Assembly: GCA_963815095.1 (NCBI GenBank)
Contig: CAWFFH010000003.1
Location: 1,467,541-1,531,540, forward strand
Reading direction: 5' to 3'
Length of the DNA stretch: 64,000 nucleotides
Source of the DNA: Candidatus Bathyarchaeota archaeon
Lineage (GTDB): Archaea > Thermoproteota > Bathyarchaeia > Bathyarchaeales > Bathycorpusculaceae
The notes under the pieces are model-generated. The model had not been told where the DNA came from, did no database searches, and saw only the letters and a program-made list of their open reading frames with translations. The position numbers were made by a program, and so were the translations under genes. This document shows, piece after piece, positions 4,816-61,025 of this stretch (position 1 is its first letter; each line of letters opens with the position of its first letter).

Positions 4816-5313
4816 TTAGAGTTCGATTATTCTTGCTTGCCATTTAAGTGTGTCTAAGATTGCAAGGGTAGGTTTTCCTGTTAGGTATCCGCAGAGTTCT
4901 CCAGGGTTTATGGAGAGGGTTTTGCCTTTTTGTTCGATGCCCTTGTTGTGGGAGTGCCCGTGGATTACAGCGTCAAAGTAGCCGCTGTCAATTAAGGCGT
5001 TTAGAAGTTCTGTTTCGTGTCCATGGAGCAGGCCGATTCGGTAGCCTTCTGTGGTTAATTGGGTGAATCTGTCGTGGATGGTGCAGTTGGCAGTTTCGCT
5101 AAAGCGTTTTTTTAATAGTTCGTGATCGCCATCGTTGTTGCCAAATACCCCAATGAGTGGGCAGTTTAGCTTAGCTAATTTTGGGATAACAAAACCGGCA
5201 ACGTAGTCGCCTGCGTGAAGCACCAAGCCGACTTTTTGCTCGTTTAGAATCTTCACAGCTTTTTCTATCAGAGGCAAATTATCATGAGTGTCCGAGATTG
5301 CGCCAATCAACAT
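4816..5313 (-). CDS. YfcE/MJ0936-family metallophosphoesterase
   Basis: SDTHDN, HAGD, GNND, HG, HGHSH and INPG motifs. Confidence 0.92.
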   Translation of the reverse strand: MLIGAISDTHDNLPLIEKAVKILNEQKVGLVLHAGDYVAGFVIPKLAKLNCPLIGVFGNNDGDHELLKKRFSETANCTIHDRFTQLTTEGYRIGLLHGHETELLNALIDSGYFDAVIHGHSHNKGIEQKGKTLSINPGELCGYLTGKPTLAILDTLKWQARIIEL

Positions 5314-41571: not shown

Positions 41572-41843
41572 TATTTTTCACCTCCTCAAAATCTTCAAGT
41601 TGCTCTACATTATGTAAGCATACGCTAAGCAGGTTAACTGTGAATAGCTGCGCATAAAAGGTGATGTGATTGTGATAGTACAGGCACAAGTTGCTTATTC
41701 CATTCAATAAACTATTCTATGTTGAAAGTTAGCGCGAGAATATACTGACGGTTCTGCAGGTAAAAATCGAAATTCTAATAATCATATTGTAAGCTTATTT
41801 TATCATATCATAATAGGCTTAAAAAACTCCCTAAACGGCAAAT

Positions 41844-41869
41844 TGGTGCGGAGGGTGGGACATCAACCC
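41844..41869 (-). repeat. tRNA-3'-end-like remnant (att-like)
   Basis: Reverse complement GGGTTGATGTCCCACCCTCCGCACCA resembles a T-arm, acceptor strand and CCA; no 5' half found. Confidence 0.55.
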
Positions 41870-42422
41870 TATTTTACCGGTAAAATATCTACATAATCAA
41901 CGAAAATTCAAAAACATCTCATCTCAATTGGGGCGAGGGCCGTACCGGACTTACCCCCTAACGGGTATGAGTCCCTGTACTTAAATTCTTGGAATTAGGC
42001 TATTTGACGAGTTAGAATGATCTGAAGCCTCACCCTACTTAACCAATAAGAGACAAGTCCACGAGTTGCAGACATGAACAGGTTTAAGTCCAGTTCAATT
42101 TGCGTGTTATTAAATTTAATGACACGTTCGTAACATCGCTCTAAGAATGAATTTGGTGAATGAGTTGCTGAGCGGAGAGGATGACACTAAGCTCTAACAA
42201 GTTTCGCGGGTGAAGCATGAGGCAAGAGAAAAAAAGAAGTAGGAGCAGATCTATCTTAATCTCAGAAAAAATAGCGACTGGCAATTCTTTTGTTAATTTT
42301 CGGTTTTAATGTTCTTTCCCAAAGGTCAATTGTCTCTGATCAATTTAATATTGTTAAATCTTAAATAGGAATGAATGCGAATTTAATCAAGAATTGTCAG
42401 TATAATTGCTGGGGGTCTGCAA

Positions 42423-42704
42423 GTGGCGACAAATAAAAACGGTTTGAAAGTGCAAAGCTCTTCTGAAATCAAGATCGAAAATTCGGAGTTTCCAATTGTC
42501 GGAATTGGCGCTTTTGCAGGCGGATTAGATCTAATCAAGAAACTGCTAGGGAATTTGCCTCTCGATACGGGTATGGCGTTTATAGTTATTCAACATTTGG
42601 CTACGGGACAGCAATCGCTCAACATCGTCATTGGATCCGAGAAAAAACCGAAAATGTACCAGCATAAAACAAAACGTGGTTTTGAGGGTCAATCTAATTT
42701 TTGA
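42423..42704 (+). pseudogene. truncated CheB-type methylesterase N-terminus
   Basis: FPIVGIGAFAGG (catalytic Ser replaced by Phe), DTGMAFIVIQHL, then unrelated sequence. Confidence 0.75.
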
Positions 42705-42717
42705 AAGAGGTTATTAG

Positions 42718-43077
42718 ATGTCAGAAAAGATATCCCTAAGGGAAATAGTTAGTGCAATTCTAAATGAGATAAAAACCATCCTCAAAGCGTACATGAATGA
42801 AGCGGAAGCAACTGTTAAGAAACGACTCAAGAAACTTATCATAGTAAGCATAGTTACCAGTGTTTTGATATCTCTTGGAATTTCATTTATTGGTTCAGCT
42901 TCACTGTTCATACTCATCGGGTCTTTCAAGTACCTTAGCACATCCATGCCCGCGTGGGAAGCCTTATACATCATGGGCATTACCTCAGGCATCACAGCAG
43001 GTGTGCTCTTTTTTGCGCTTTTCATCATAATACGAAATCAATTAAGATCTCCCGAAAAAACTGACAAGGATAAATAA
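42718..43077 (+). CDS. two-TM membrane protein, holin/YqjE-like
   Basis: Amphipathic N-terminal helix followed by two TMs. Confidence 0.65.
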   Translation: MSEKISLREIVSAILNEIKTILKAYMNEAEATVKKRLKKLIIVSIVTSVLISLGISFIGSASLFILIGSFKYLSTSMPAWEALYIMGITSGITAGVLFFALFIIIRNQLRSPEKTDKDK

Positions 43078-43199
43078 GTCACGAACTTTTCCTCTCGCAA
43101 AGATGGCAAGTGAGTTGACCTCACAGAAAAAGAAGATCTACGAATAACATGTTAAGAATAGAAAAAACTGACATAGCGTTAGCTTAAAAAATAAATAAT

Positions 43200-43552
43200 C
43201 TGCTCAAAATTCTCGTGCTTGTATTTTATCCAATGTACGCAATGAAAAGGCTTTCTTTTGTTGCACTGCAGAGGGAGTTAACACAAAAATTTCAACAATC
43301 AGCCTCCAAGATTTTGCGGCCAAATTGCACGACATATATGAAAGCTCTATTCTGTTTCATTATCCACGGGGCAATTTCCAAGCTTGGATAAGAGACACAG
43401 TAAAAGACAACGAGTTAGCCAGCAGAATTTGTTTTATAGAAAGGGGCATTTTCGGGAGAGAAGCTAAGGCAAGAACTGTTAAAAATGGTTCAAACGAGAA
43501 TAAGCGAACTCAAAGATACAAAACAACAAGTATTCCCACCCAGCCAATGTAA
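43200..43552 (+). pseudogene. DUF5752-like fragment
   Basis: EKAF...SLQDFAAKL...SILFHYPRGNFQAWIRDTVKD.ELA; no proper start, shifted C-terminus. Confidence 0.55.
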
Positions 43553-43737
43553 CAAGGACGGGTTATGTCTATCTTAATACAAACGATGATTAACGTTTAA
43601 TTTAGAGGCTTGCCTTTTCTCTTTTTTTCTGTTATTGTTAATAAATGATAAAAAGTGAGGCTAATTGTCTGTAGCTGTGAGAGCACAATCACAACTCTAT
43701 ATGTAGCATTGTTCCTTCATTTGTTTAGGTGTAAGTT

Positions 43738-43911
43738 TTGTCGAAAGTTCAACCTCATCCAGGTCATGAAAATCACCTCTGCAAAATGGTAGAGGACAAA
43801 GTACCCTTAGAGAAAATAAAGCCACTTGTGAAAGACGCGAAATACATCTGCAAAAGCTGCATGCGAACAGCTGCCAAAGCTGAAAATCTTTGCTCTCCCG
43901 AACCCCTCTAA
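43738..43911 (+). CDS. 57-aa putative metal-binding protein
   Basis: Manual translation ...HENHLC...YICKSCMRTAAKAENLCSPEPL; AGGTG SD. Confidence 0.75.
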   Translation: MSKVQPHPGHENHLCKMVEDKVPLEKIKPLVKDAKYICKSCMRTAAKAENLCSPEPL

Positions 43912-44293
43912 ATACATCTTTTCTTTTTTTTGAGAACAAAATCCCACTTAATATCCGTCAGAAACTAAAAGCAATTCTCGAAAACACACTTTCCTATTCT
44001 GGCTAAAAGTCGAATAGGCAATGCTCTTCTTTACGAATTTAATCTTTGATTTCTCAAATTTACCCTTGATTTTGTCGTCACTCATAAAAAATCACAAAAA
44101 AGCTAATCTCATAGAATCAAATAACCAAAGTGACACCTTGATGTTTCAAAGGAAATTGAACCTAAAAATAATTCAAAAACTCATTTATAGTTTTTTAAAA
44201 AAACCAAATAGAAACTTGATGAATTGTAATTGTTTGATGACATTCACATCTTAAAATAGACTGGCAAGTTAAGGGTAAGTGAGGTTTTTGAAT

Positions 44294-44452
44294 ATGGGTT
44301 TACTTGATTTGCTTTTTGTAGTTGCTGCGATCCTTATAATACTGTGGCTTCTTGGCTTTGTATTCTTCAACCTTGGCGCTATCATATGGGTACTGCTTGT
44401 CGTTGCGGTCATCATAATACTTTTCCGGCTGCTCTCAGGACGCAGAGTATAA
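44294..44452 (+). CDS. lmo0937/DUF5670-like small membrane protein
   Basis: Manual translation ILIILWLLGF...G.IIWVLLVVAVIIILFRLLSGRR. Confidence 0.85.
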   Translation: MGLLDLLFVVAAILIILWLLGFVFFNLGAIIWVLLVVAVIIILFRLLSGRRV

Positions 44453-44617
44453 CATCAACCGAAATCGAAAAAGCAGCGTCAGAAGCTGCTTTCCAATTTT
44501 TTTTGCAACCATAAAGATGATGTGTATTCTTACGATTAGGTGCATTGTTTGTTGGTGCGAGATGACAGTCACATACTTTAATAAAATCGGTGAGACAATA
44601 GTTTTTAGTGAATTTTT

Positions 44618-44782
44618 ATGAGCGAAGAAGAAACTAATGGTAAAATTAAACAGGGAAAAGGCAAAGTCCGCGAAGGCTTAGGCAAAATTACGGGCGACAA
44701 AACTGAACAAATTAAAGGCAAAGTGGAACAAGTAGAAGGCAAAGTCCAAGAAGAAGTAGGTAAAGCAAAAAGAAAAGCCTAA
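44618..44782 (+). CDS. csbD: CsbD-family stress protein
   Basis: Manual translation GKIKQGKGKVREGLGKITGD...KGKVEQVEGKVQE..GK. Confidence 0.88.
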   Translation: MSEEETNGKIKQGKGKVREGLGKITGDKTEQIKGKVEQVEGKVQEEVGKAKRKA

Positions 44783-44892
44783 GAAGTATTAGCAACTCAA
44801 CGTTTTAGACAGAATATGTAAAAACGTTGTCCATCCTTTTTAGGAGAATAATCTTGGAAACTTGAAATTAAATGGTTATTTAGAAACTTTGG

Positions 44893-45219
44893 TTGGTGAA
44901 TAATATGGTTAAGTGTGAAATTTGTGGGGCCGACTTACTTGTAGGGGCCAAATTCTGTTCAAATTGTGGGGCTCCCGTAGGCGTAAAAGAGGAGTTTACT
45001 GTCCGCTCAGAGGATCTTGTTGCGAAAATCAAGGAACTGCTTCATGAGAGCGACGTATCAAGAATAATAGTTAAGGATGAGAGTGGAAAGTCCCTTTTAG
45101 AAATACCCGTTTGGGCTGGTATTGTAGGAACTATATTGGCTCCTTGGCTGGCAGCTTTGGGTGCAATTGCAGCTTTAGCAACAAAATGCACCATCACTGT
45201 CATCAGGCAAAAAACCTAA
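44893..45219 (+). CDS. zinc-ribbon + DUF4342 protein
   Basis: CEICG...FCSNCG; KIKELLHE..V.RIIVK...LLEIP. Confidence 0.85.
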   Translation: MVNNMVKCEICGADLLVGAKFCSNCGAPVGVKEEFTVRSEDLVAKIKELLHESDVSRIIVKDESGKSLLEIPVWAGIVGTILAPWLAALGAIAALATKCTITVIRQKT

Positions 45220-45280
45220 GAACAAAGGCAAAAACTTAGGCAAGTGACTTTTTAGAATATCTTAGGAGGTGTAACAAATT

Positions 45281-45478
45281 ATGCCAGAACAAAAAATAGA
45301 CGTCAAAGAACAGATAGAGAAGATGGGTGAGAAATGGAGTGAATTCCAGAAGACTTGGGTTTCTCACTTCAAAGACATGGAAGTAGATGTATTAGAATGG
45401 AACTTTGGAGTGGGAAAAACCGGCGAAGACACCATCTTTGAAATGAAAGCAAAGGTCGCAGTAAGACAAAAGAAGTAA
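45281..45478 (+). CDS. 65-aa hypothetical protein (paralog of 22193..22390)
   Basis: GGAGGTG SD; duplicate. Confidence 0.85.
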   Translation: MPEQKIDVKEQIEKMGEKWSEFQKTWVSHFKDMEVDVLEWNFGVGKTGEDTIFEMKAKVAVRQKK

Positions 45479-46234
45479 TAACCCTTAACGCACATGGGTG
45501 AACAAACAACCTGTTTCGTTAAGAACCAAGATTCTTTTTTTCTTTCTGGCTTAGCCCTTCTTCTATTTGTTCCCTACTGATTAGATAGGCATGAGCTTTA
45601 TCCAAGACATTATCACTCTGTGCGATTGCAGCGGGCATTGAGGCTTCAACGGGGTGCCCTCGCAGAAGATAATTGTTTTGAATGAAAGATCTTAAAAGTC
45701 AACAATCCTTCACTTGTGACAATAATCAAGGATTATTACGAAACAATTTGGGGACAAACGTCAGAAACACCAATAAAAAAAATGGTGGAAAAAAATCTTA
45801 CCCCAAAAACCGTAACCATTTACTAATAGTCGCTTGTCAAGGTTGAATATTTTTCCCATATTGGCGTTCTCAGCAAGTTGTTTTCAAGTATTGATCAAAA
45901 GCACGAATATGTTTAGGGTAGTTTTTTGTAAAAAAACTTGTTTTCTGTCTCTATGTCTGCATAGAATAGAGTCTCAAAATGAAGTTCCACATATTCGCTT
46001 CTTGACCTTTTTGCTTTGAGGCTTCCTTGAATAGTTTCTCTTTACGCGATTGGAAAGGGCTATACTCACTGGATTGTCTCCGTATAATAACTTAGCCTTT
46101 ACTGGTTTCACACCCTAAATGGTGCAAGTCTCTATGGACTTATCCCCGACCGAGTCTGAGTCATTCTTTTTAAGATGTTCTTAGTCAATGGGGGATCCCA
46201 GCACCAATTTGCCAGTAAAAATGAAACCCCCTTA

Positions 46235-47152
46235 TCAGACATTCTGGTCTAGTTCTTTTGCAAGCTCTTCCAGAAGGGTCTTTTGACGTTGAGTTATCTT
46301 TTTAGGGACAACCACATTCACGCGGACGCGCAGATCACCTCTGCCATATCCGCCCATTCTCGGCATGCCTCTGCCTCTAACCCTCAGAATCTGTCCAGGC
46401 TGTGTTCCAGGATGAATTTTCAGTCCAGCTTTTCCTTCGATTGCCGGTATGGTGACTTCCGCGCCTAACGTGGCTTGAGAGATGCTAACATATAGATTGT
46501 ATAACAGATCGTCGCCATCTCTTTTGAAGTATTGATGAGGCATCATGTGAATCATTATGTATAAATCTCCTGAGGGGCCTCCGTCCTGGGCTGCGTCTCC
46601 TTGTCCTTCAAGCCTTAGCTGGTATCCTTCAGATATCCCAACTGGTATTTTTACCGTAATCTTTCGCTCCTTTTTTACAAGTCCTTTTTGGGATCTCTCA
46701 ATTCTTGGGACCATAATTTCCTTTTCAACACCGCGTGTTGCTTCCTCAAGGGTTATGTAAACTTCGTAGCCCAAGTCTCTGCCACGGATGGTTCTTTTTC
46801 TTTCTACAAAGTCTTGACCATCAAAGAAAACACTAAAAAGATCCCCAAAGCCTGAGCTGACGCCCATGTCGCGAAATATCGAGTCAAAGTCAGCCCCTCG
46901 GAAAATGTCCTCTCGACTATATCTTTGATCAAATCCAGTGCTGCCCAAATTGTCAAACTGTTTTCGTTTCTCATCATCCGACAGCACTGCATAGGCTTCA
47001 GATATCTCTTTGAACTTCTCTTCAGCTCCCGGAGACTTGTTTCTGTCAGGATGATATTGCATGGCTAGTTTCCTGTAGGCGTCTTTTATCGCGTCTTTGG
47101 ACGAGCCCTTTGGAATTCCTAGTATCTCGTAGTAACTCTTTTTTTCAGCCAT
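46235..47152 (-). CDS. DnaJ/CbpA-type co-chaperone without zinc finger
   Basis: J-domain HPD and C-terminal DnaJ domain; no CxxCxGxG repeats. Confidence 0.92.
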   Translation of the reverse strand: MAEKKSYYEILGIPKGSSKDAIKDAYRKLAMQYHPDRNKSPGAEEKFKEISEAYAVLSDDEKRKQFDNLGSTGFDQRYSREDIFRGADFDSIFRDMGVSSGFGDLFSVFFDGQDFVERKRTIRGRDLGYEVYITLEEATRGVEKEIMVPRIERSQKGLVKKERKITVKIPVGISEGYQLRLEGQGDAAQDGGPSGDLYIMIHMMPHQYFKRDGDDLLYNLYVSISQATLGAEVTIPAIEGKAGLKIHPGTQPGQILRVRGRGMPRMGGYGRGDLRVRVNVVVPKKITQRQKTLLEELAKELDQNV

Positions 47153-47332
47153 TAATTTTTCCTTCGTATCTTATGCTGGCAAGTTTGTTTGCTCTAAAGA
47201 GATTAGTTCAGCGTCCTACAAATAATCTACTGAGTAATGCGCGATTTTAAACTCTGTGTGCGCGCTAATGCAGGCGCACTTTTAAAAGTCAAACCCTTAT
47301 GTTGTAACCATCAATCGTTTGGATGATAGAAA

Positions 47333-48007
47333 ATGGGACTAATAAGCTCCATTATGGTGCGGTTGCTTAAAGCACAACCATTTGAAAGTCAAGCACTTGA
47401 CACTATAGCCGAGAGTATGAAAGCAACTTCAATCATCAAAAAAGATCGATTCCACCGCTACTATAAATCAAGTATTCTTCCCATTCCTTGCTTAGCCTAC
47501 TCTGACTCGCTTGTCTTTAACTCAAATTATTACCAAATGCTTTCGACTGATGAGGTTCTTGCTATTGGCGCCCACGAATTTAATCACATAGCAAAAAGGC
47601 ATATTGCAAAAAGGTTACCTCGAACGGTTCTTCCTGCTGCAGTGCTTGCTGTTGTGATAGGTTACCTGTTTTTTATTAACTCTGCCTCATTTCTGTCCAT
47701 TGCATCGACAGTAGTTCTGTCTTTCCTTTTCTTTTTGTTTGGTTCGTACTATGTTAACGCTAAATGGTTTAGAAAACAAGAAGCTGAATCTGACCTTAGT
47801 GCCGTTGAGTTCGTTAATGGGTCCGCCATGATTTCTGCCCTGGCGAGGCTTCGCCCACAAAAAATAAGTTGGCTTTCTAAATTAATTCCTCATACTCATC
47901 CAACAATAGATCAAAGAATACATAATATTCAAACTGTTATGAGCACTAAAAATTCATTTAGCTTTACTGTCACTTTTGGTGATGGGTCGCAGTCTAGTTT
48001 GGTCTAG
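47333..48007 (+). CDS. M48-family zinc metalloprotease
   Basis: AHEFNH, E..SD and THP...RI motifs. Confidence 0.85.
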   Translation: MGLISSIMVRLLKAQPFESQALDTIAESMKATSIIKKDRFHRYYKSSILPIPCLAYSDSLVFNSNYYQMLSTDEVLAIGAHEFNHIAKRHIAKRLPRTVLPAAVLAVVIGYLFFINSASFLSIASTVVLSFLFFLFGSYYVNAKWFRKQEAESDLSAVEFVNGSAMISALARLRPQKISWLSKLIPHTHPTIDQRIHNIQTVMSTKNSFSFTVTFGDGSQSSLV

Positions 48008-48222
48008 AATATGAAATTACATCTGATGTCGTAAATATAGATAAGCTACTTTTGGGAAAACATAAACTTGGTATGAGAGAGATATTTTTTGAAGAAGAGA
48101 ATCCTGAACCAATCACGGGATATATCTAAAAAAATCCATTGCTAATATTCAAAAGACTTGCTCAGAAAACTGACCAATTTTGTTCTCCATGTGAAAAATC
48201 GTCACCTATGTTGATAACTAAA

Positions 48223-48351
48223 TTATTTTTCCTTTTGTCTTTTTAACGCAGATTCTTGTTTTCTTAGGGCTTCCTTGGCGTCTCCTAATGTAACAACTTC
48301 AACGGTGTTTCCAGCGATAACGACTTTAAATGCTACCATTTCTAATCCCAT
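48223..48351 (-). CDS. 42-aa hypothetical protein
   Basis: AGGTGA SD then MGLEMVAFKVVIAG... Confidence 0.5.
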   Translation of the reverse strand: MGLEMVAFKVVIAGNTVEVVTLGDAKEALRKQESALKRQKEK

Positions 48352-48381
48352 TTCTATTCACCTACCATGTTTGTACTTAGT

Positions 48382-48555
48382 TTAACGCTTCCTCGGGTTC
48401 AACGCACAGCCTTCACAGATACATTGACGAAAGCATTCCTGTTCATCAAAACAAACATATTCGGGCTCGGGTTGCGTTCCACTAAAAGATACAAAAGATT
48501 CTTCTACAACCAATTCAACCGTATCTTTCTCGTCATGTATCGGTTTTTTCTTCAT
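48382..48555 (-). CDS. 57-aa protein with Cys-rich C-terminus
   Basis: Manual translation MKKKPIHDEK...YVCFDEQECFRQCICEGCALNPRKR. Confidence 0.5.
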   Translation of the reverse strand: MKKKPIHDEKDTVELVVEESFVSFSGTQPEPEYVCFDEQECFRQCICEGCALNPRKR

Positions 48556-48724
48556 TCTATATCAAATATACTGTTTTAGTTAGCAACTTAAGACCTATGA
48601 ACCTCGAATCAATATTTGAAATAAACAACAATGCAACCAAAGCAACCAAGAAAAAACGTCGTGACAGGCAGTAGCTCTTCAGCTTATACCAATAAAGCAA
48701 AAGTAACTCGTGTTGACTTATTGG

Positions 48725-48875
48725 AGTTTTTCTCCGCACATGGGCAAGCCCCAACTTTTTTGAGTTGATCTAAGGTCATTCCTATGTTGCACTTATAGCA
48801 GAGGCGTATTTTACACTTTTGACAGCAGAAGGTAGCACCTGCGTGCCACAAGCATCACACGTTTTAAAGACACAA
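48725..48875 (-). pseudogene. frameshifted paralog of the 24888..25058 zinc finger
   Basis: KTCDACG / FCCQKCKIRLCYKC...GACP across frames. Confidence 0.6.
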
Positions 48876-49147
48876 TCATTACACAATAAATCTCGCTTCT
48901 TTCCTCATTAAAAAAAGAAACCTGCTTATAGGTAATGTCAACTGGTGAACAGCACTTTCAACCTGGATTTAATCTTCGTTTCCCAACTGGTTTAAACAAA
49001 AAAATGGTTAATAATCAAGTTTTTCCAAAAGTCTCTATCCTCAGCGAATTTGTTTAGCTTCGCAGGCTACACCAACCGAAAAGGTGTTTGAGGCTGTTAA
49101 CCAACAGAGGCAGACATGTCTAAGCGGTTACTAATAATTTAATAGAT

Positions 49148-49219
49148 TTATTCCCATCCTTCGTCGTCGAACTCTTCATCTTCAGTTTCTTCCCATTCCT
49201 CTTCTTCATCGAATGTCAT
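49148..49219 (-). CDS. 23-aa hyperacidic peptide
   Basis: GAGGTGA SD then MTFDEEEEWEETEDEEFDDEGWE*. Confidence 0.55.
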   Translation of the reverse strand: MTFDEEEEWEETEDEEFDDEGWE

Positions 49220-49976
49220 ATCCTTTTTCACCTCAAACGAAACTGGACAAGTTACTTACATTGAACGTCATAAGCCTTTACTTTCGACAAACGACGTTGA
49301 AAGTCACATATGGGACGGTTTCCGAGCGATGTCAGTTTTTGTACCGGGATGGGTTTTTGAGTTGAGGTTCGAATCTCTTCCCCGACGCTATTTTTTAAAG
49401 ACTGATCAGGAACGAAGTTGAACTGGATGCCTTAATGGATAAATCGGGTTCGAACCTGAACCAAGGCAGGTCTCTACGATTCTGCGCCCAAAAGGGTTGT
49501 AACTTTTTAATAGTTTTATAACTTTTCGAATTTTGCTGTAAGATTTAAACGCTCTCCGGGAATGCCTGGACATGAAAAAAATATTTATAGACAAAATAAA
49601 TTAAATTGGGCCAGCTCTACGCTAACGCACTCCAGATCAAGTAGATTGGTTTATGTTACTGTTGGTGCCGAGGGCTAGCTTGAAACCGTCGTTTAAACCG
49701 TCGGTACAACATAATCCAAAAAACAGGGCAGGTCGTACCGGGCTTAACCCCTTCACGGTATGAGTTCCTAACTCAAACTTATTGAATAACACTAATCTTA
49801 GAAAATTTTGACCAAGGTTTCAAAAACTATAGCGCTGAAAGGGGGCTCCCAACACCAATCAACCAATAAGAATTAGATGCAAGCAAGTCGAGCCATGCTT
49901 GAAACTTTAGGTTTGGAACCAACCGATTTAGATAACATACGAACTCCCCGCAAAAGAAAATTCTTTCAGTCCTTCG

Positions 49977-50207
49977 TTAATATAAGGTTGGATTTTGATT
50001 AATAAATTGTGCTTGCCTTTCCCTTGCACCTAGATTCTGACAAGTTATTGAAGGACCATTCTGCCATATGGATTCATATAAATTTAGAAACTCTTGGCTT
50101 GAGAGCCTCTTCTGATTTTCCATTTTTGCAACAGCTTGAGCCATTTTTTTATTTTGCTTAGTTTTGTTGATGTTTTTAAACGAATCAATTAATCTGTTTC
50201 CCAACAT
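49977..50207 (-). CDS. hypothetical protein
   Basis: 76-aa ORF, no recognisable motif. Confidence 0.4.
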   Translation of the reverse strand: MLGNRLIDSFKNINKTKQNKKMAQAVAKMENQKRLSSQEFLNLYESIWQNGPSITCQNLGARERQAQFINQNPTLY

Positions 50208-50677
50208 TAATGCCCCAGATTGAAATGCAAATCAACGATGCTTTTTGCCAAAGTATTTGGGCACTGGCACTTGGCTGCCAAAACTTTTCTCAAGAGCTAT
50301 TCGGCACTTTTTTGCTAAGTCTTTCTCGTTTTCGAATGTTATTGTTTCAGCCATGTTGAATCTACCTGTAACTAAAAACTATGATTTTGTAATGATAAAA
50401 GCTAGATTTCTGTTGGGAATATATACCAAGAACAAGCATGTTCTATTTAACTGGATTATGTCAAAAGTAGGAATATTTTGCTTGCATATTACATCAGTTT
50501 TGATAGCACAGTTGGTAAAGACACACATTCTTCATTAAGCTGCCGTTCTAGCGTGGCGGGGCTTTATGCAAACGGCTATAACGTTCTTTTGGTTTATTGT
50601 TTTGATGTTTTTTATGAATGTATCAGTTGTTTTGGGTCATCCTAACAAATTCAGTTTTAATCATTCGTTTGCAAAGG

Positions 50678-51247
50678 CTACGGTGGAGATGCTTGAGCAG
50701 ATGGGACACACACCGTTAAGCAGCCGTCGAGAGCAAATTCGCCCATTGGAATTTTTATCAGATCACAGAATTCTTTCTCCTTCTCTAATTCTTGGGTTAT
50801 AGAAAGAAACTTGAGACCTAATCCTGAGGCTGCAGCTTTCAGCCACATATTTTGAAGACAATGGGCTAAAGAAAGATGCTCAACTCGAGGAATCCCCCGT
50901 TGTTCAGCTATTACGATGTAGTATGGTCCTTTTCCTATATTTGGCGTTCCATTTTCGCCTTCCAATTTGATCCGTTCTAAAAAAGGCCCTGCATGCTGAT
51001 TGGTGAATTCGTCGAGTTGCATTTGGGTTTCTATTTCTTTGCTCCAAGATTCAGCTTTACGTTTCATTATTGCAACAATTTGAGCTGTCGCTTTGCTTTC
51101 TCTTAGAATATCTATAAACCTTCTGAAATCTTCTCGTGATACACTTGCGACGGCATAAGAGGCTAATATTCCTGCTTGAAGAATTTGTACTATCAAATCT
51201 CTTGGGGGAGTTTCTGTCTTAAACTTTCTAATTGCCCCCCTGTACAT
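50678..51247 (-). pseudogene. nitroreductase-family protein, probably degraded
   Basis: RGAIRKFK...QILQAGILA...LQNMWLKAAASGLG; N-terminus short and C-terminus aberrant. Confidence 0.75.
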
Positions 51248-51337
51248 CGAAAATGATCGTCAGTGGGATTTTAGGAAAGATTTTAATATTTTGTTAGTTT
51301 ATGGACATTTAAAATTGTTTTCTTTTTAGGTGGGTAA

Positions 51338-52754
51338 ATGAGCAAAAAACAATCTAAGAAGTTTAATGTTTTTATGAATGGAAGTCAGCCTTCCGGGCAA
51401 ATGCTCCGCGAAGGGTCTGCTCAATGGATTCTTTCGCCGTTTGTGCATCTATTTAATATTGATGAATCGACGAAGTGTCTTTTCAATTCTTTAACTCTAA
51501 AGAAGGTATATTTAACCAACAAAAAGTACGAAAAAGTTTTATCAGATCTGAGTAAAGGCGAGTGCAGTAAGGATGTCAAAGAATTAATTGAACTAAAATT
51601 TGTGGTGCCTCAGGGATTTGATGAGGAAAAAGTTTTTGATACTGTTGCAACCAGCTTGCTTAGAAAAAAACCAGACCCAAGTCTTGCCTACATTTTGGTG
51701 ACTGACTTCTGCAATTTCCGATGCGGCTATTGCTTTATCGAAAACAATCTAAAAGGACCGAGCTCCGTGATGTCTAAGGATTTGGCTGACAAAGTCATAA
51801 ACGCCTTAATCAACGAGGCAAAGCAAGTTCCAGAATTCAGGGTTACATTTTATGGGGGAGAGCCGTTTAGCAATAGCGAAATTGTCTTCTATATTATTGA
51901 AAAGCTTGAACAGGCATCTAAGAAATTCATTGTTTTCATGTGTAACAAATGGAAGCCTAATAACCGAAGAAATAGCTAAACAACTTAAACAACACAACGT
52001 TGGTGTAGGATTGTCGCTAGATGGATGGGCCAACATTGACAAAAACCGCGTTTTCACCGATGGAAAAGAAACCTTTTACCAAGCTCTCAAAGCCTTAGCT
52101 ATTCTAAAAGAAGCAGGCGTAAACGCAGGAATATCGTGCACAATCACAAAACAGAATTATATGCATGCAGAAGAAATAGTAGAATTTATCCAGAAATTGG
52201 GAGTCAGAACCATAGGCTTCAACTTGTTGACCAGACTTAAAGAGCCAAGCAAATTTGAAGTGCCTGACCCAAAACAACTCGCCCATCATCTTTTCGCAGC
52301 TTACTTAAAAGCAAAAGAATTGCACATGTTTGAAGATCGCATTGATAATCGGCGAGCAAATTATTTTTTCAAAGAAATATTTCACTTGTACGATTGCCCC
52401 GCTTTTGGTCAACTAATATTTTTTTCGCCAACCGGAACAGTAGGTCCTTGCCACGCGTTCTATCCCTCTGGGAAATATCAAATTCCAATCAAAGATGATT
52501 TGAAAATTCAAGAAGAACCATTATTTCACAAATGGCTGGAAATAGGCACTCTAAAAAATAAAGACTGCATGAGGTGTGCGGCGATTGGAATTTGTGGCGG
52601 AGGATGTGCCTACGATATCTATGTTAAAACTGGTCAACTTGGCATAAAAGAAGACTACTTCTGTATTTTTCAAAATGAAATACTAAAGCTCCTAATTTCA
52701 TACAATTTCTTGCTGGAATCTCAAAAAACCGAAGTTGCAAAAGTCAAAAGTTAA
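51338..52754 (+). CDS. radical SAM/SPASM peptide maturase, +1 frameshift near 51925
   Basis: CNFRCGYC, FYGGEP | VTNGSLIT, SLDG; SPASM C...GPC...CMRCAAIGICGGGC...FC; ~90-aa N-terminal extension (possible RRE). Confidence 0.88.
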
Positions 52755-52908
52755 AGAATTTGCAATAATCCAGCCCTGATTTACTTTACAATAAACATTA
52801 AATAAAACGACTTAATACATCAATGTAGTGATTGTTTTTGTCAAAAAATAAACGAATACCTCAACTCTTCCTTAAAAAAACCAAATAGCTGTTCCATCGG
52901 AAAAAAAA

Positions 52909-53256
52909 TTGACTCCAGCACAAAAGAAGCGTTTACAGAAAACTTTGGCAAAAATGCCAACTATTGAGAAACTGGATCCTAAAATGTATGCAAAACTGCA
53001 GTCAACAATACGAGATGCTGTAGCAAAAACCTTACCGGAATATCAACAATGGGTAAATTCTTCATTGGTAGCAGCCGATGATTGCCCGACAGAACTCTGT
53101 AGCGCCTGTGCCAACCAATGTCCAACAGAATTGTGCAGTGCATGTAGCAACCAGTGTCCCACACCAACTAAAGGCGTTGATGATATTGTTGTGAATGCTG
53201 TCAACGAGGCTATGTTGGGAGCTATTCGTAAAGCTTTGCACGAACAGTTCAAATAA
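52909..53256 (+). CDS. putative RiPP precursor 1 (7-Cys repeat core)
   Basis: AADDCPTELCSACANQCPTELCSACSNQCPTP between helical leader and follower; the start homologous to precursor 2 (52832) is out of frame across an A7 run. Confidence 0.78.
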   Translation: MTPAQKKRLQKTLAKMPTIEKLDPKMYAKLQSTIRDAVAKTLPEYQQWVNSSLVAADDCPTELCSACANQCPTELCSACSNQCPTPTKGVDDIVVNAVNEAMLGAIRKALHEQFK

Positions 53257-53378
53257 GAAGCAGCTTTATGGTCCAAAAACCGAAGTGCGATCTACTGAAA
53301 AAACATCTCTCCTATTTACGCCACAAATATATTAGCAACCATAAAAACCCGTCCTATAGACTGTTCAAATGATCTAAA

Positions 53379-54969
53379 TTGCCTATTTTTCTTTGCATTC
53401 CACCAGTTTCTTCTTTAATTCCATATCCAGCAATTCCATACTTGACAAGCCGCCTGAGAGCAAATAATCAAAAGGTAAGTACCTTTGATCTAAACATAAA
53501 GGCTTTCAACCTAACTCTTTTCCATCAGAGAATAGATATTAAACCTGGAGAAATTCTAAGCAAAAGTAACAACACGAAAAGGGCGAAATGGAAAAGAGTT
53601 CCTAAAGCAGAGATTTATTCGACCATGCGAGAAGGCCAAACAATTTTTGAAGAAATAATGTTACAAGAGGCTTATGAACAACTAGGCTATGACATTTCAA
53701 ACTTAATTTTCAAAGAGATTATTAGTGAAGAATCAAGGCAGGCAACATTGTCGGATGTTTGGAAAATTTGTAATGACTGGTTTTTAGAAGTTGCCCAAGA
53801 TTCCAAAAAGCAAAACATAGTGGGATTTCATGTAATAAGCCATACTGGTTTAATGTGGAGCTTACTTTTGGCACATAAATTAAAGAAAATTCAGCCAAGA
53901 ATTTTGACAGTTTTGGGCGGTCCAGCATTATTTTCAGCAGAAGAAATTTTGTCTGTCAATTCAGAAATTGACGTAATAGTTCGAGGGGAGGGCGAGGTTA
54001 CGATTTCTGAGATAGCTAATTCTTATGACGGTAGTTTGGAATCAATAAAGGCAATCGATGGAATTTCCTACAGAACTGATAAAAACGGAATTGTTTCCAA
54101 CGCTGATCGACAGTTGATTAAATCTCTTGATGTTTTGCCTTTTCCCGATTACGATGATTTACCATTACATGAATATCCTCAGAACAAGTTTGGAATGCCT
54201 GTTATGCCGGTTGTCGGCTCTAGAGGCTGTATTGGAGATTGTGTTTTTTGTGTTGAAAAACGTTTATGGGGCAACACGTATCGGATGCGCTCACCAGAAA
54301 ACATCGTTTCGGAAATCAAGAATATCAAAGAAAAATACGGACCTTCCATCATTCGATTCAATGACAGCTCGATTAATTGCAACATCAAATCGCTTGAAAA
54401 ACTCTGCGATTTATTGATTGAAGAGAATATCGGAATGCAGTGGACCTGCAACGCCAGAATTCGTCCTGAAATGAACACCAAACTGCTTAGGAAAATGCGA
54501 CAAGCGGGTTGTATGGGCTTGTGGTTTGGCATAGAATCTGGGTCCCAGAGAATTCTGCGTAAAATGAAAAAAGGGTATTGATTTGGAAACTGCTAAAAAC
54601 GTGATCCGCGATACTGCAAAAAATGGCATTCGTGTTCAGATATTTATGATAGTAGATTTTCCGGGAGAAACTCTTGGCGATTTTAACAAGTCTGTTACTT
54701 TCTTAGAACAAAACCACCAATTTATTGACCAAGTCAGCGTTTCACGGTTTGGGGTCTTGCCTGATTCAGAAATTTCTCATAACCCCCAAGAATATGGAAT
54801 TGAAATAATCAAAGGAAAAACGCCGGTTAATTACAGTTATTCTTATTCGCCTACGCCCGAGAGTTACCGATTTGAAAATCTCCGTTTGGTTTGGAATCGC
54901 TTAAGCATGGAAAAAACAGCAGGCTCAAAAAGAAATTATCCCCTAAAAATAATTGTTCCATATTACTGA
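53379..54969 (+). CDS. B12-binding radical SAM enzyme (class B methyltransferase-like), +1 frameshift near 54575
   Basis: LGGP...VIVRGEGE, SRGCIGDCVFC, FGIESGSQRIL..MKKG | IVDFPGET. Confidence 0.88.
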
Positions 54970-55019
54970 GTTTATTTTCACGAAAACGTCTCCTAGCTTA
55001 GTCTTAATGTTAACCATTT

Positions 55020-55071
55020 AAACCATAAATATTATCTTGAGAGATCATAAAGAGAGCAGTGATTGTTTTTG
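55020..55071 (+). promoter_or_regulatory. duplicated promoter/leader block (second copy 55599-55650)
   Basis: aaaccataaatattatcttgagagatcataaa identical upstream of precursor 2 and of the core-less paralog; contains TATA-like ATAAATA. Confidence 0.7.
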
Positions 55072-55464
55072 TCAAAAAATAAATCTACGCCTAACTATTC
55101 CACAAAAAACCTGACCCCAGCACAAAAGAAACGTTTAGAGAAAACCTTGGCAAAAATGCCCCCTATTGAAAAACTGGATCCTGCTGTTTATGCAAATTTG
55201 CAGTCATCGATACGTGATGCCATAGCAAAGACTTTGCCGGAATATCAGAAGTGGGTAAATTCTTCATTGATAGCAGCCGACGATTGCCCCCCGCCGACAC
55301 CTGTATGTAGTTCTTGTAGCAACGATTGCCCCACGCAGCTTTGTAGTTCATGCAGTAACGACTGCCCAACTCCAAATAGAAAACTGGACAATATGGTTGT
55401 TAATGCTGTCAACGAGGCTATGATGGAAGCAATTCGTCAAGCTTTAAAAGAGCAGTTCAAATAA
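55063..55464 (+). CDS. putative RiPP precursor 2 (7-Cys repeat core)
   Basis: AADDCPPPTPVCSSCSNDCPTQLCSSCSNDCPTP; leader and follower highly similar to precursor 1. Confidence 0.8.
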   Translation: MFLSKNKSTPNYSTKNLTPAQKKRLEKTLAKMPPIEKLDPAVYANLQSSIRDAIAKTLPEYQKWVNSSLIAADDCPPPTPVCSSCSNDCPTQLCSSCSNDCPTPNRKLDNMVVNAVNEAMMEAIRQALKEQFK

Positions 55465-55647
55465 AAAGCAGCTTTACAGTCAGAAACCAAACGCAATAAA
55501 CTGAAAAACAGCTCGCCCATTTACACAACAAAGGTGTAGTGGCCACTATTTTTCTTTGCAATCCGCCAGTTTCCTCTTTGATTCCATATAACTGCAAAAA
55601 ACCATAAATATTATCTTGAGAGATCATAAATAGAGCAGCGATTATTT

Positions 55648-56049
55648 TTGCCAGAAAATAAACCAACAACCAAAACCCTCTCTAAAAGACCTACAAAAAC
55701 CAAAAAACAAAATCAACGCCTGAACGCACCTTCGAAAAAACTTCCATATTTTGAAAAGTTAGATCCAGAAATTTATGCAAAACTGCAATCAACCGTCCGT
55801 GAAGTCATCGAAAAAATGTTGCCCGAGTACAAAGAATGGCTAAATTCTGCATTTGGCGAAAAAATCATAGACAACGATGGTTCAAATGGGTCCTTGCAAA
55901 ACATTGATAAGCTGGTGGTTTCGGCTGTCAACAATTTAATGACAACTGCATTGGATAAAGCTTTGAAGGAAAATGACGAGCAGCGGGGCATTATGGAAAA
56001 ATGGTTTAAAATGAAATTTTATGATGATGTTTCAGACATTACGACCTGA
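55648..56049 (+). CDS. core-less precursor-scaffold paralog, probably the N-terminal domain of the methyltransferase
   Basis: EKLDP.IYAKLQST.R....LPEY..W.NS and VV.AVN..M..A..KAL retained; no Cys; overlaps the next ORF in the +1 frame. Confidence 0.75.
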   Translation: MPENKPTTKTLSKRPTKTKKQNQRLNAPSKKLPYFEKLDPEIYAKLQSTVREVIEKMLPEYKEWLNSAFGEKIIDNDGSNGSLQNIDKLVVSAVNNLMTTALDKALKENDEQRGIMEKWFKMKFYDDVSDITT

Positions 56050-56752
56050 AAGCCGAACGTATTACAAATATTGTGTAGAAAATTTCGTTACTCAATTTTT
56101 TACGAAAGAAAAAATATCTGGAAAGAAAATTTTCGATTTTGGATGTGGCCCGGGGTACTTTTCCAAGATTTTAGCCCAACATGGAGCCCACATAACTGGA
56201 ATTGACAGAAGTGCATTTCTAATAGACAAAGCGAATGAACTTAAGCAAAGAATAGGACTTGAAAATGTAGAGTTTTTGGAGGGGGATTTTCTTGATTTTG
56301 CAAAAAATATGCCCTCGGAAAAGTTTGATTATATTGTAGCGATTGATACGATTGTGAGTTTTGACTATTGCAGACAAACGCATAATCATAAGGATTTCAC
56401 CCAGGTTTTAAGTGAGATTAGAAGAGTTCTGAAAGATGAGGGTAGATTTTTTGTTATTGAGGCGCATCCGTTTTTTGGTCAACTTGCGAAAGGAATAACT
56501 CTCTCGAAGGAAGGACGTTTTCATGGTCGTTTGCCTAATTATAAGATAGCGTATAAAGCTAAGGATAATCCTCATCATTGGTTTACCCTTGATGAAATGA
56601 CGAGCGCTCTTGACGAGAACTCTTTGGCTATTTGCAGGATTTATGAGCCTGATCCAAGTGTTGATTTAGAAAAGGAAAATCCTCATTTGTACAGGTTTTA
56701 CTTGAAGTATCCGCATTTGATTGTATATGAAATATGCAAAGTGAAAATCTAA
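56021..56752 (+). CDS. class I SAM-dependent methyltransferase
   Basis: IFDFGCGPG, GIDRS, FDYIV, RVLKDEG. Confidence 0.9.
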   Translation: MMMFQTLRPESRTYYKYCVENFVTQFFTKEKISGKKIFDFGCGPGYFSKILAQHGAHITGIDRSAFLIDKANELKQRIGLENVEFLEGDFLDFAKNMPSEKFDYIVAIDTIVSFDYCRQTHNHKDFTQVLSEIRRVLKDEGRFFVIEAHPFFGQLAKGITLSKEGRFHGRLPNYKIAYKAKDNPHHWFTLDEMTSALDENSLAICRIYEPDPSVDLEKENPHLYRFYLKYPHLIVYEICKVKI

Positions 56753-58498: not shown

Positions 58499-61025
58499 TC
58501 ATTGCATCGCAATTTGGTAGTTTTCATTTCCCTTCTTGCTAAGCTCAGGAATGGTTATGATGAATTTTGCTCCTTTGCCAGGTTCTCCTTCTTCAGTTAT
58601 TGTCCAGCCGTAAACATCCATCATTTTCTTAATAAGATACAATCCAAGACCACTGCCTTTGCCAGTTGAAAAACCTGCTTCAAAAAGCTTTATTTTGCTC
58701 TCTTCAGATATGCCCACTCCGTTGTCTTCATAAAAAAGTTTCAAACCGTAAACGTTTTCAACGTAGCGGAGACAAATTTGTGTGAGTTTTTCGCCATGTT
58801 TAAGCGAGTTATCAATAAAGTTGTAGAACAGTTGTTTTAGAAGCGAATCAGCAATAACCTGTAGTCCTTGACATTCATTAACAACCTGTACATTCCCCAA
58901 ATTTTTCACAAGCGCTATGGCTTGGTTGAAGCTTTCAAAGACATTCTCCTTTGAGAGCTTTTCTGAGCCAATTTTCTCATAAAGACGACTGAACTCAAAA
59001 AGCCTGTCAGATGCAGCAAGCGCACAGTCAATGGCGTCAAAATATTTAGCCAATTCAGGATTATCACCTACTCGCCTCTTTAGCAAATACACATTTGATT
59101 TTGCTGTCATAAGCTTGTTACCAACATCATGCCTAGTTAAGCTTCCAACAACACGTAGCTTCTCATTAAGCAATTCAATTCTATTACGTTCCTCTTTTAA
59201 GTTTTCTTCGGCTTTTTTGCGTTCGGTTACATCTCTTGCTATACTAAGAATTGCTTGTTTTCCTTGAAAAGTTACCAGGCTTGAACTAATTTCTACAGGG
59301 ATTTTGCATCCGTCTTTTCGAGTATGCACAGTCTCAAAAACTTGTTTTTTAACAATAAGCAACCTCTCAATTAACTCACTTACATGCTCTCTGCTTAGAT
59401 TATTGTCAATCCCTGCGATACCTATTGAAAATAATTCTTCTTTTGAATAACCTAAGACCTCAACTGCGGCATTGTTAACTTCTAAAAAGTTGCCGCTAAA
59501 ATCAATAACCCATGCGGATTCAGCCATACTGTTAATCAAGTTTTTGTAATTTGCCTCACTTTCCCTCAATGCCCCTTCAGCCAGCTTTCGTTGGGTAATG
59601 TCTGAGCTGTAAATGTTTACATATCCTTCAGAGATAACTGGCGTGAAACTAAAAGAGAAAACGCTTTCATTTATTTTTTCTTCAGACTCTAATCTGCGCT
59701 TAGATTCTAAAACCTTAACGACTAGCTTTCGCCAATGTTCAGGCACAAAACCCCCAACATTAACCATCAAAGAGCTCAGGAGGCTTTTGGCAGAAGCATT
59801 AGCAAACAACAAAGTGCCTGTTTTGTCTATTCGAAATACTGCAAAGGGGTTTTCATTAGGAAACCTAGCTAAGCTTTTAATTTCTTGTTCTTTTTTCTTA
59901 CGTTCAGTTATTGGTACTGCCAATTCTAGTGCAGCGGTTATTTTGCCATTTGTGTCTTTGAGTGGCGTTACTCTTAACTCGACCCAGGTTATTTCGCCTT
60001 TAGAATTAACTGTTTGGTACTCATGAACATCAAGAGAAACGTTCTGGTTGAAAACTTTCTCTACGCCGCAGTCAGGACAAATTGCCCCTAAATTGTTGAA
60101 AGTCTCGTAGCATTTCTTGTTGGGTGCAACCCCCAAAGCCATCATACGTTTATTTGCCCAAACTACGCGATAATCCTTGCCAATAACAGCTAAACCAGCA
60201 TCAATGCCTTCCCCAACTCGTTCAAGAACATTAAATGTTCCTCTTAACTCTGCTTCCGCTTGCTTTCTTTGAGTAATGTCTTCTAATTCGGCAACAAAAA
60301 GAACTGGTTTACCCTCGTTGTCGCGTATTACACTAACTGTTGCTTTTCCGTCAATTATATTACAGTCTTTTCGAACATACCTTTTCTCTTGGCTAAAATA
60401 CAGAATGTTTCCACAAATGAGTTCTTTCATTTCTTCATTGCTGATTTCGACATCCTCTGAGTACGTTATGTCTTTAAAAGAAAGTGTTTGCAACTCATCC
60501 TCCGAGTAACCAACTATTCTGCAGAAAGCCTCATTTGCACTTCTAAAACGCATATTTGAATCAGATGTCGCAATCCCAAGAGGCGCATTACGAACAATTG
60601 CTTTTAGTTCTGCTTGGCTTTTCCTAAGTGACTCCTCAGCTTTTTTATGCCCAAAACTTGATAGAATACCATATGCGAGTTCTCCATACACTGTTTCAGG
60701 TGAGCCCTGCTTGTTATAGTATCCATTTGCTCCTAAGTTTAGGGCTTGTATGGCTACTTCTTCTCTGCCTTTCCCCGTAAACAAGATAAAGGGAATTTCA
60801 TTTTTGGATTCGCGGAGTTCTTTTAGAAATTGTAAACCGTTTTTCTGCGGCATCTCATAGTCAGAAACTACAACATCATAGTTTCCAGATGCCAATTTTT
60901 TAAAGCCATCATCCACACAACAAGCCAAATCAATCTCAAAGCCGCTGTTTAGATCCATGCAGCATTAGTTTTGTTATTTCTTTAATTGATTGGTCGTCGT
61001 CAACATGTAAAACATGAATCGGCAT
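58499..61025 (-). CDS. receiver-PAS(x4)-histidine kinase, +1 frameshift near 60960
   Basis: MPIHVLHVDDD upstream in another frame; VSDYEMP, PAS repeats, RHDVGN, DNG.G, GSGLGLY. Confidence 0.9.

Follow-up and report, generated by a model that had tools for sequence, protein, structure and literature searches.

What does an archaeon make with two radical S-adenosylmethionine (SAM) enzymes, a methyltransferase and a set of small proteins with cysteine (Cys) repeats, all encoded next to each other? The question is raised by positions 51338-56752 of a stretch of 64,000 nucleotides (nt) from a Candidatus Bathyarchaeota archaeon (assembly GCA_963815095.1, contig CAWFFH010000003.1, positions 1,467,541 to 1,531,540 of the forward strand), and this whole stretch is referred to below as the window. 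We put the probability at about 0.58 that the gene cluster found there is a compact, mobile cassette, resembling those for peptides that are made by the ribosome and modified after translation (RiPPs), that modifies small cytoplasmic proteins post-translationally and whose product is retained as a modified protein. What was observed directly is which genes are present, how their domains are arranged, the motif of the repeats, and the linkage of the genes and the selection on them.

Composition and conservation of the cassette

A reading of the DNA made without database searches (the sequence-only reading) had reported a co-oriented cluster of a radical SAM/SPASM enzyme, a radical SAM enzyme dependent on B12, a methyltransferase and Cys-repeat precursors. 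The open reading frames (ORFs) of the window agree with this description: all six reported elements are present at 51338-56752 and all of them lie on the + strand. The features are the following (RRE: RiPP recognition element; aa: amino acids; pLDDT: predicted local distance difference test):

51338-52754, + strand: RRE-radical SAM-SPASM enzyme, approximately 471 aa if read through, in frames 51338-51979 and 51852-52754
~52833-52908, + strand: ancestral Lys/Ser-rich 5' part of precursor 1, broken by 1-nt insertions at 52862 and 52888, with two TAA within the upstream match
52909-53256, + strand: precursor 1, present ORF, 115 aa, 7 Cys
53083-53166, + strand: core of precursor 1 (from the translation), two 12-residue Cys repeats CPTELCSACxNQ and then a closing CPTP, 7 Cys in total
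53379-54969, + strand: B12-binding radical SAM enzyme, 529 aa if read through, in frames 53379-54581 and 54583-54969
55063-55464, + strand: precursor 2, 133 aa, 7 Cys, intact
55285-55374, + strand: core of precursor 2 (from the translation), CPPPTPVCSSCSND-CPTQLCSSCSND-CPTP, 7 Cys, pLDDT below 50 over residues 73-104
55648-56752, + strand: scaffold-methyltransferase fusion (367 aa in relatives), present in the window as ORFs 55648-56049 and 56021-56752

Two of these elements are paralogs of precursor 1, namely precursor 2 (76% identical) and the core-less ORF at 55648-56049 (45% identical). We collected 28 related loci via their SPASM enzyme, the presence of which is thereby given by construction, and recorded which other elements accompany it:

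26 of 28 loci: precursor directly downstream of the SPASM enzyme
22 of 28 loci: B12 enzyme
24 of 28 loci: scaffold-methyltransferase fusion
8 of 28 loci: second precursor

When the search was started from the precursors, the SPASM enzyme was found adjacent in 7 of the 9 places, the other two being orphans.

The cluster is not due to chance, because its gene order recurs in 28 loci and the ratio of non-synonymous to synonymous substitution rates (dN/dS) is 0.08-0.48 in all genes. All cluster genes are under purifying selection, with values of 0.08-0.24 for the cassette enzymes and 0.13-0.46 for the precursors (one short-distance pair: 0.61). For precursor 1 against its intact relatives the ratio was mostly 0.16-0.21, the pair at 0.61 being among these comparisons, and for precursor 2 against its orthologs it was 0.18-0.25.

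The precursor family was found in 22 of the 120 species of the genus to which the window belongs (for high-quality genomes: 10 of 73) and in 0 of 24 genomes from other families of the order. The cassette looks mobile, because its flanks vary between genomes and the upstream 10 kb form a multi-copy patchwork. Apart from the cassette genes, a given gene family was shared by at most 5 of the 28 flanks, and no such family resembled a protease or a transporter; when the 10 kb upstream of the window cluster were compared with three relatives, a patchwork of multi-copy fragments and no clean set of orthologs resulted.

The precursor family

The precursors are proteins of 115-207 aa that consist of a disordered, Lys/Ser-rich N-terminus, a helical leader with the near-invariant signatures IEKLDPxxYxKLQS and LPEYxxW, a Cys core and a helical follower. 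The core is internal, being followed by a conserved helix of approximately 30 residues, and it contains two to five copies of the unit C-P-[TV]-[EPQ]-[LIV]-C-S-[SA]-C-[GSD]-N-[DQ]. Most proteins carry two or three units and hence 7 or 10 Cys, that is 3n+1 Cys per protein. Among 271 units from 133 proteins, for which the search pattern fixed the Cys positions and left the other positions free, 260 have N at position 11, and position 12 is taken by D (155 units), Q (104) or E (9), which makes 268 of 271 in all. A repeat of such regularity, with its C-x-N-D/Q element, would offer a clean substrate for studying the specificity of an uncharacterised SPASM enzyme. The AlphaFold2 (AF2) model of precursor 2, which is a poor one (mean pLDDT 61, predicted template modelling score (pTM) 0.27), has helices at residues 19-31, 40-72 and 106-132 and a disordered core at 73-104. 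Over 19 residues, hydropathy reaches at most 0.83 in precursor 1 and 0.44 in precursor 2, and as neither holds a hydrophobic segment, both are predicted to be cytoplasmic.

The sequence-only reading had not recognised this family, and the databases do not recognise it either: no Pfam or NCBIfam model matched above threshold, an ESM Atlas query with precursor 2 gave no usable match, and an exhaustive HMMER search of 1.84 billion cluster representatives recovered only 17 that belong to the precursor family. A profile made from ten precursors retrieved 180 clusters from a collection of 5.8 billion proteins. Among the 120 of these clusters that were listed, all are unnamed or 'hypothetical', save for two evidently mis-transferred names and one Candidatus Bathyarchaeia label. 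A Pfam match of both precursors to LppA (PF16708), with 20.8 and 18.7 bits (cut-off 26.4) over a Lys/Ala-rich helix, was rejected as spurious.

The SPASM enzyme and its probable chemistry

The SPASM enzyme matches Pfam Radical_SAM (81 bits), the NCBIfam SPASM model TIGR04085 (43.9 bits, cut-off 27) and many peptide-maturase models. The CxxxCxxC motif (C124/C128/C131) is invariant in 6 orthologs and 48 homologs, and invariant too are the seven SPASM Cys (C352, C370, C409, C412, C418, C422 and C441; pattern Cx12Gx4C...Cx2Cx5Cx3C...C). In the AF2 model of a paralogous SPASM enzyme (pLDDT 91.3, pTM 0.90) the radical SAM barrel is preceded by a domain of three strands (residues 35-39, 44-49 and 54-59) and three helices (60-72, 77-84 and 95-106) with pLDDT above 90. 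Foldseek aligned 446-462 columns to TigE (8vpo, E 5.7e-20, TMq 0.70) and CteB (5wgg/5why, E ~1e-18), and CteB is also the best sequence match in the PDB (E 1.5e-24). The RRE that had been suspected in the N-terminal extension is therefore borne out at the level of the fold, by this AF2 domain and the near full-length match to TigE and CteB, whereas the Pfam PqqD model was not matched. The top NCBIfam models were FibroRumin, PapB, CefB, QhpD, CcpM, SCIFF and TIGR04463, all of them maturases of Cys-containing peptides or proteins.

The cassette would carry out thioether and C-methyl chemistry. The RRE of the SPASM enzyme would dock the precursor leader, and the enzyme would then link, in intramolecular thioether (ranthionine-type) bridges, a Cys sulfur to a carbon in the side chain of an acceptor close by. 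The partners would most likely be the third Cys of a unit and the D/Q three residues on (C-x-N-D/Q). The same C-X-X-Q/D motif is cross-linked in CrpA: according to the accessible part of PMC13692751 (2026), CrpC of Methanococcus voltae joins the C-X-X-Q/D repeats of CrpA by thioethers.

We regard it as quite unlikely that the Cys repeats are put to a different use, either because the core undergoes another kind of SPASM chemistry (formylglycine formation from Cys, as by anSME, C-C or ether links, or epimerisation) or because the repeats bind a metal or an Fe-S cluster and are not substrates. It speaks for such a use that the SPASM enzyme has anSME among its best matches, in structure as well as in sequence, and that TigE, the best fold match, reportedly makes cyclopropylglycine and not thioethers. 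The arrangement C-x2-C-x3-C-P resembles the end of a ferredoxin-type motif, and each precursor has 3n+1 Cys. A metal-related role is suspected for CrpA as well, in the accessible part of PMC13692751. Metal binding alone, however, would need neither the near-constant D/Q, acceptor-like, after the third Cys nor the N that accompanies it, and the tight linkage of the genes argues that the Cys-repeat proteins are substrates. Moreover, the highest-scoring families PapB, CefB, CcpM, QhpD, SCIFF and TIGR04463 act on Cys-rich substrates, and their characterised members form thioethers.

The methyltransferase carries a copy of the substrate scaffold

The core-less paralog was first taken for a separate gene, and this part of the sequence-only reading has to be given up: 24 of the 28 related loci have it as the N-terminal domain of their methyltransferase. 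Where relatives are intact, a single in-frame protein of 367 aa comprises both the core-less ORF and the methyltransferase; in the window this protein is divided into two ORFs by one extra base at 56039. The N-terminal domain (approximately 135 aa) is precursor-like and keeps the leader and follower signatures without the Cys repeats, and the Cys core is absent from the fused scaffold in 14 of 14 aligned fusions. The methyltransferase ORF of the window matches Pfam Methyltransf_31 (E 1.6e-24), and the Pfam domain corresponds to residues 156-272 of the fusion. The dN/dS of the fusion is 0.25-0.48 in the N-terminal domain versus 0.08-0.15 in the methyltransferase domain.

Because it lacks a core, the fused scaffold cannot itself be a substrate. 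It could instead serve to find one: the N-terminal domain, as a Cys-free copy of leader plus follower, may pair with the scaffold of the substrate. The class I methyltransferase would methylate a heteroatom, for example of a free thiol or a carboxylate. We modelled the complex of this domain with precursor 2 and obtained a median score of 0.53 (runs: 0.48, 0.60 and 0.53), where the best of 3 controls scored 0.00; the runs shared at least 39% of their contacts and the pLDDT of the partner was at least 60. In the calibration, 58 of 80 solved complexes attained the mark, as did 2 of 110 mismatched pairs, but scores up to 0.60 were those of only 7 of the 80 solved complexes and of both passing mismatches, so that a score in this range is more often wrong than right unless the pairing is likely beforehand. 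The model thus weakly suggests a scaffold pairing between the N-terminal domain and precursor 2, and we take it as a lead that the methyltransferase finds its substrate by like-with-like pairing.

In a more far-reaching version, which we hold to be rather doubtful, the leader-plus-follower scaffold is a self-pairing helical module with which the methyltransferase, through its Cys-free copy, recruits the substrate independently of any RRE, and the product is a thioether-stapled, methylated intracellular Cys-loop protein, with for example a metal or redox function. If true, scaffold pairing would give tailoring enzymes a new way to locate a substrate, and would be simple to use as a handle for engineering.

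The B12-binding radical SAM enzyme

The fragment of the B12 enzyme in the window matched PF02310 (36.1 bits, cut-off 32.1) and PF04055 (44 bits), and intact orthologs of 529 aa exist in relatives; on an intact ortholog PF02310 scored 31.2 bits, just below the cut-off. The enzyme would methylate unactivated carbons in the core.

Contig 3 of the window's own genome (G000) encodes at least 14 more B12-binding radical SAM paralogs, with 25-34% identity to the cluster enzyme. They are found at ~425-460 kb, 798-801 kb and 1230-1235 kb, several of them clustered, and SPASM-like genes lie beside those at 425-457 kb.

A retained protein or a released peptide

The product would stay in the cell as a modified protein of 13-20 kDa, possibly a metal-binding one. 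We favour such a retained protein over a released peptide because the cassette encodes no protease or exporter and because the core is placed between two conserved helices. That no protease or exporter is adjacent had been noted for the window, and it holds for the family: none is conserved across the flanks of the 28 loci, nor is an immunity gene.

Alternatively, though this appears unlikely to us, the cassette would be that of a classic RiPP, in which a protease encoded elsewhere removes leader and follower, and what is exported, to serve as a signal or antimicrobial, is a small polycyclic thioether peptide with 25-60 residues. The layout is indeed RiPP-like, with a conserved leader, a hypervariable Cys-rich core, a repeat number of 1-5 and an RRE on the maturase; among the closest enzyme families are several with released peptides as their products, and the cores differ between subtypes (e.g. 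CPQPACWSCGTGP in L053 and L054), as would be expected for diversifying natural products. Against release speak the absence of conserved protease, exporter and immunity genes from the 28 loci and the lack, in the precursors, of a hydrophobic segment of the signal or double-glycine-like kind. The follower helix is conserved, and the methyltransferase has kept it in its N-terminal domain as well; this suggests that the whole protein has a structural role. Furthermore, the closest experimental precedent, as presented in the accessible part of PMC13692751, yields a modified protein and not a peptide.

Several points weigh against a cassette that produces a thioether-bridged, methylated and retained protein. 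The orphan precursors L026 and L028 have no radical SAM gene within 12-13 kb. The B12 enzyme is missing in 6 of the 28 loci and the methyltransferase in 4, from which it follows that both steps are accessory. The SPASM enzyme missed the cut-offs of all named maturase models (bits scored/cut-off): FibroRumin TIGR04136 178/400, PapB NF047865 155/340, CefB NF038107 121/600, QhpD TIGR03906 115/453, CcpM TIGR04068 104/500, SCIFF TIGR03974 103/425 and TIGR04463 94/525. The B12 enzyme likewise stayed under all curated cut-offs, those of its closest models TIGR03975 (159.1/281.85), HpnJ (160/578) and ApyD (156/750) as well as that of TIGR04014 (97/360). The methyltransferase domain is generic by family searches, and its target atom is a guess. 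SPASM enzymes also yield C-C bonds, ethers, formylglycine and epimers, so that the thioether is only the likeliest outcome. A protease or exporter may be encoded elsewhere in the genome, the structural models of precursor 2 and of its complex score low, and in the window all three enzymes are frame-shifted.

Frame shifts in the window copy

Alignment of the window cluster with six related loci showed five 1-nt insertions that are unique to the window:

51929: SPASM gene
52862 and 52888: 5' end of precursor 1
54578: B12 gene
56039: scaffold-methyltransferase junction

The window copy may therefore be non-functional, being either freshly inactivated or mis-assembled. Recoding, for example with pyrrolysine, was ruled out as the cause of the breaks because these are frame shifts and not in-frame stops.

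It is possible, at somewhat less than even odds, that the insertions are real, that the window cluster is a dead duplicate, and that the genome relies, if at all, on an intact second locus without a B12 enzyme. Such a locus (L007) was found approximately 130 kb upstream of the window cluster on contig 3 of the same genome (L007:8093-11332, minus strand). It is 88% identical to the window copy at the DNA level and encodes a SPASM enzyme of 471 aa (L007:9917-11332), a precursor of 152 aa with three repeats and a fusion of 367 aa. A gene for a B12 enzyme is missing, and the locus could stand in for the window copy with its SPASM enzyme and methyltransferase. Redundancy of this kind, the adjoining patchwork of multi-copy repeated fragments, and the presence of five insertions within 5.4 kb that no other of the seven aligned loci shares would all fit a dead duplicate, as would the density of the insertions, which is several-fold over the genome background (elsewhere 2 of 30 compared genes, over 29 kb, are split).

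Other observations speak against a dead duplicate. Once their three extra bases are removed, the enzyme genes are open throughout, without a stop, and the dN/dS of the repaired genes (0.12-0.24) equals that of pairs of intact loci, even when compared with the nearest intact locus L039 (97-98% identical, dS 0.05-0.08). All five events are of the same type, +1 insertions, with no deletion and no nonsense change among them. At least one gene is split in 15 of the 28 related metagenome-assembled loci, each time at another place, a frequency too high for strong purifying selection, and the other split genes in the same genome (the 2 of 30 over 29 kb, plus two more cases) point to consensus errors. 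Every contig derived from reads that bridges a site is free of the extra base (sites 51929, 54576/54578 and 56042). With 3-6% of their positions different from the window, however, these contigs belong to relatives of 94-97% likeness, and they show that the relatives are intact and not the state of this strain. In this read search the best runs contained only 0.24 of the sampled words, and no listed contig of at least 99% likeness spans an insertion site; one DNA contig over 54578 without the deletion begins 10 bases before the site and was not counted.

Contigs from one peat metatranscriptome run covered 21 of 30 bins at 90-99% likeness, and since such libraries can contain DNA, this is only a hint that relatives of the cassette are transcribed. 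In comparison with the ORFs of relatives, genes split over frames were seen elsewhere in the genome at C4:95632-96217, C7:38766-39484, C7:24151-24872 and C3:861795-862363.

Relation to known systems

The system that most resembles the cassette is Crp of M. voltae. The accessible part of PMC13692751 describes CrpA as an archaeal protein of 28.8 kDa with ten Cys repeats and CrpB as a protein that shares the N-terminus of CrpA and improves processing. As far as that part of the report goes, the two systems have in common: an archaeal host, a three-cluster RRE-radical SAM-SPASM enzyme beside a substrate of at least 100 aa with C-X-X-Q/D repeats, a second protein that has the N-terminal region of the substrate and not its core, no identified protease or exporter, and a modified protein as the product, which in our case is a proposed one. 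They differ in that the cassette enzyme lies outside the CrpC family TIGR04463 (94 bits, cut-off 525) and that the repeat here is a 12-residue, 3-Cys unit, present in 2-5 copies and placed internally between leader and follower, whereas the Crp repeats, in the same part of the report, are C-terminal. The B12-radical SAM enzyme is likewise a difference from Crp as described there, as is the fusion of the scaffold-sharing protein to a methyltransferase, and the host belongs to a Bathyarchaeota/Bathyarchaeia lineage of soil and peat and is not a methanogen. Supplemental Data set 1 of PMC13692751 is stated to list CrpA-like proteins across life and may include relatives of the precursors.

The ranthipeptide systems CteB/CteA (5WGG/5WHY) and PapB/PapA (freyrasin) are similar in the order RRE-radical SAM-SPASM and in a core of repeats that combine Cys with an acidic or amide residue; PapB is the second-best NCBIfam match of the cassette SPASM enzyme, next to CteB as the best PDB sequence match. 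The bit scores remain far from the cut-offs of PapB (155/340) and SCIFF (103/425), and the substrates are of another build: those of the CteA/PapA type are peptides of approximately 45-50 aa with a C-terminal core, whereas here they are proteins of 115-207 aa in which the core is internal and a follower helix comes after it. QhpD, which acts in the maturation of the gamma subunit of quinohemoprotein amine dehydrogenase, is a SPASM enzyme that makes Cys-to-Asp/Glu thioethers in QhpC, a small protein that is kept in the cell as a subunit. Its model TIGR03906 aligns over residues 27-443 of the cassette SPASM enzyme, but with 115 of the 453 bits needed; moreover, no dehydrogenase subunits are encoded nearby and the substrate here is repetitive. 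The accessible part of PMC13692751 names QhpD as a comparison for the Crp system.

The B12-radical SAM C-methyltransferases of RiPPs and proteins (TIGR03975, ApyD and the MCR glutamine C-methyltransferase TIGR04014) are alike in combining B12-binding and radical SAM domains within a cluster for peptide or protein modification, and different in that the cassette enzyme scores under every one of their cut-offs. Borosins have a methyltransferase and its own precursor in one polypeptide. The fusion described here also joins a methyltransferase to precursor-derived sequence, but the fused part is N-terminal and core-less, and so not a substrate, separate core-bearing precursors exist, and the catalytic part is a class I methyltransferase of the ordinary Rossmann kind.

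A literature search, supplements apart, found no paper on this precursor family or on a radical SAM RiPP from Bathyarchaeia. The novelty proposed in the sequence-only reading holds for the family, which is in no curated model, and is lower for the kind of system, since thioethers on an archaeal Cys-repeat protein are already described in the accessible part of PMC13692751. What is new is that the core is internal, between a leader and a follower, that its unit has 12 residues and three Cys, that a B12 enzyme is added and, most of all, that the methyltransferase is fused to a copy of the substrate scaffold without the core. Very few examples of enzyme-installed thioethers on whole proteins exist, the first archaeal case dating from 2026. 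If our reading of a protein-modifying cassette is correct, it would extend the idea to an uncultured Bathyarchaeota/Bathyarchaeia lineage, with a B12-radical SAM enzyme and a methyltransferase that bears the framework of the substrate as new tailoring partners.

Divergent loci and genomic surroundings

A divergent subtype was found at L053:5953-12082 and L054:5950-8205, with a SPASM enzyme that is 67% identical and without a B12 enzyme or a methyltransferase. Its precursor has 193 aa, a Trp-containing core of CPQPACWSCGTGP repeats and a long C-terminal extension, and in L053 it is followed downstream by two small Cys-bearing ORFs and two radical SAM genes of 330 aa. The nearest bacterial SPASM homolog that was found (31% identity) is located at L063:5513-7173, in a record of a Myxococcales metagenome-assembled genome, and is preceded by a peptide of 82 aa with 11% Cys and a CxCxCxCxC-type core; a similar peptide of 78 aa is encoded nearby on the other strand. 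Another set of SPASM homologs (P0193, P0195, P0196, P0202-P0204, P0206 and P0210; 34-47% identity, 550-596 aa) contains GNAT acetyltransferase Pfam domains, and judged by these domains they are predicted radical SAM-acetyltransferase fusions.

In the window the cluster has as neighbours a nitroreductase on the opposite strand, an unknown protein of 195 aa and a PAS histidine kinase. At 58499-60958 (- strand), 1.7 kb downstream of the cassette, a protein of 819 aa is encoded that has an N-terminal receiver-like region, PAS-like segments and a histidine kinase end, and that is not kept beside the cassette in other loci. On the upstream side, positions 41000-51300 contain few long ORFs and short multi-copy fragments (e.g. 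query parts 4960-5073 and 8152-8385 of that stretch) that match many scattered places in three related genomes, and this region at the border of the cassette has the look of decayed debris from mobile elements or repeats.

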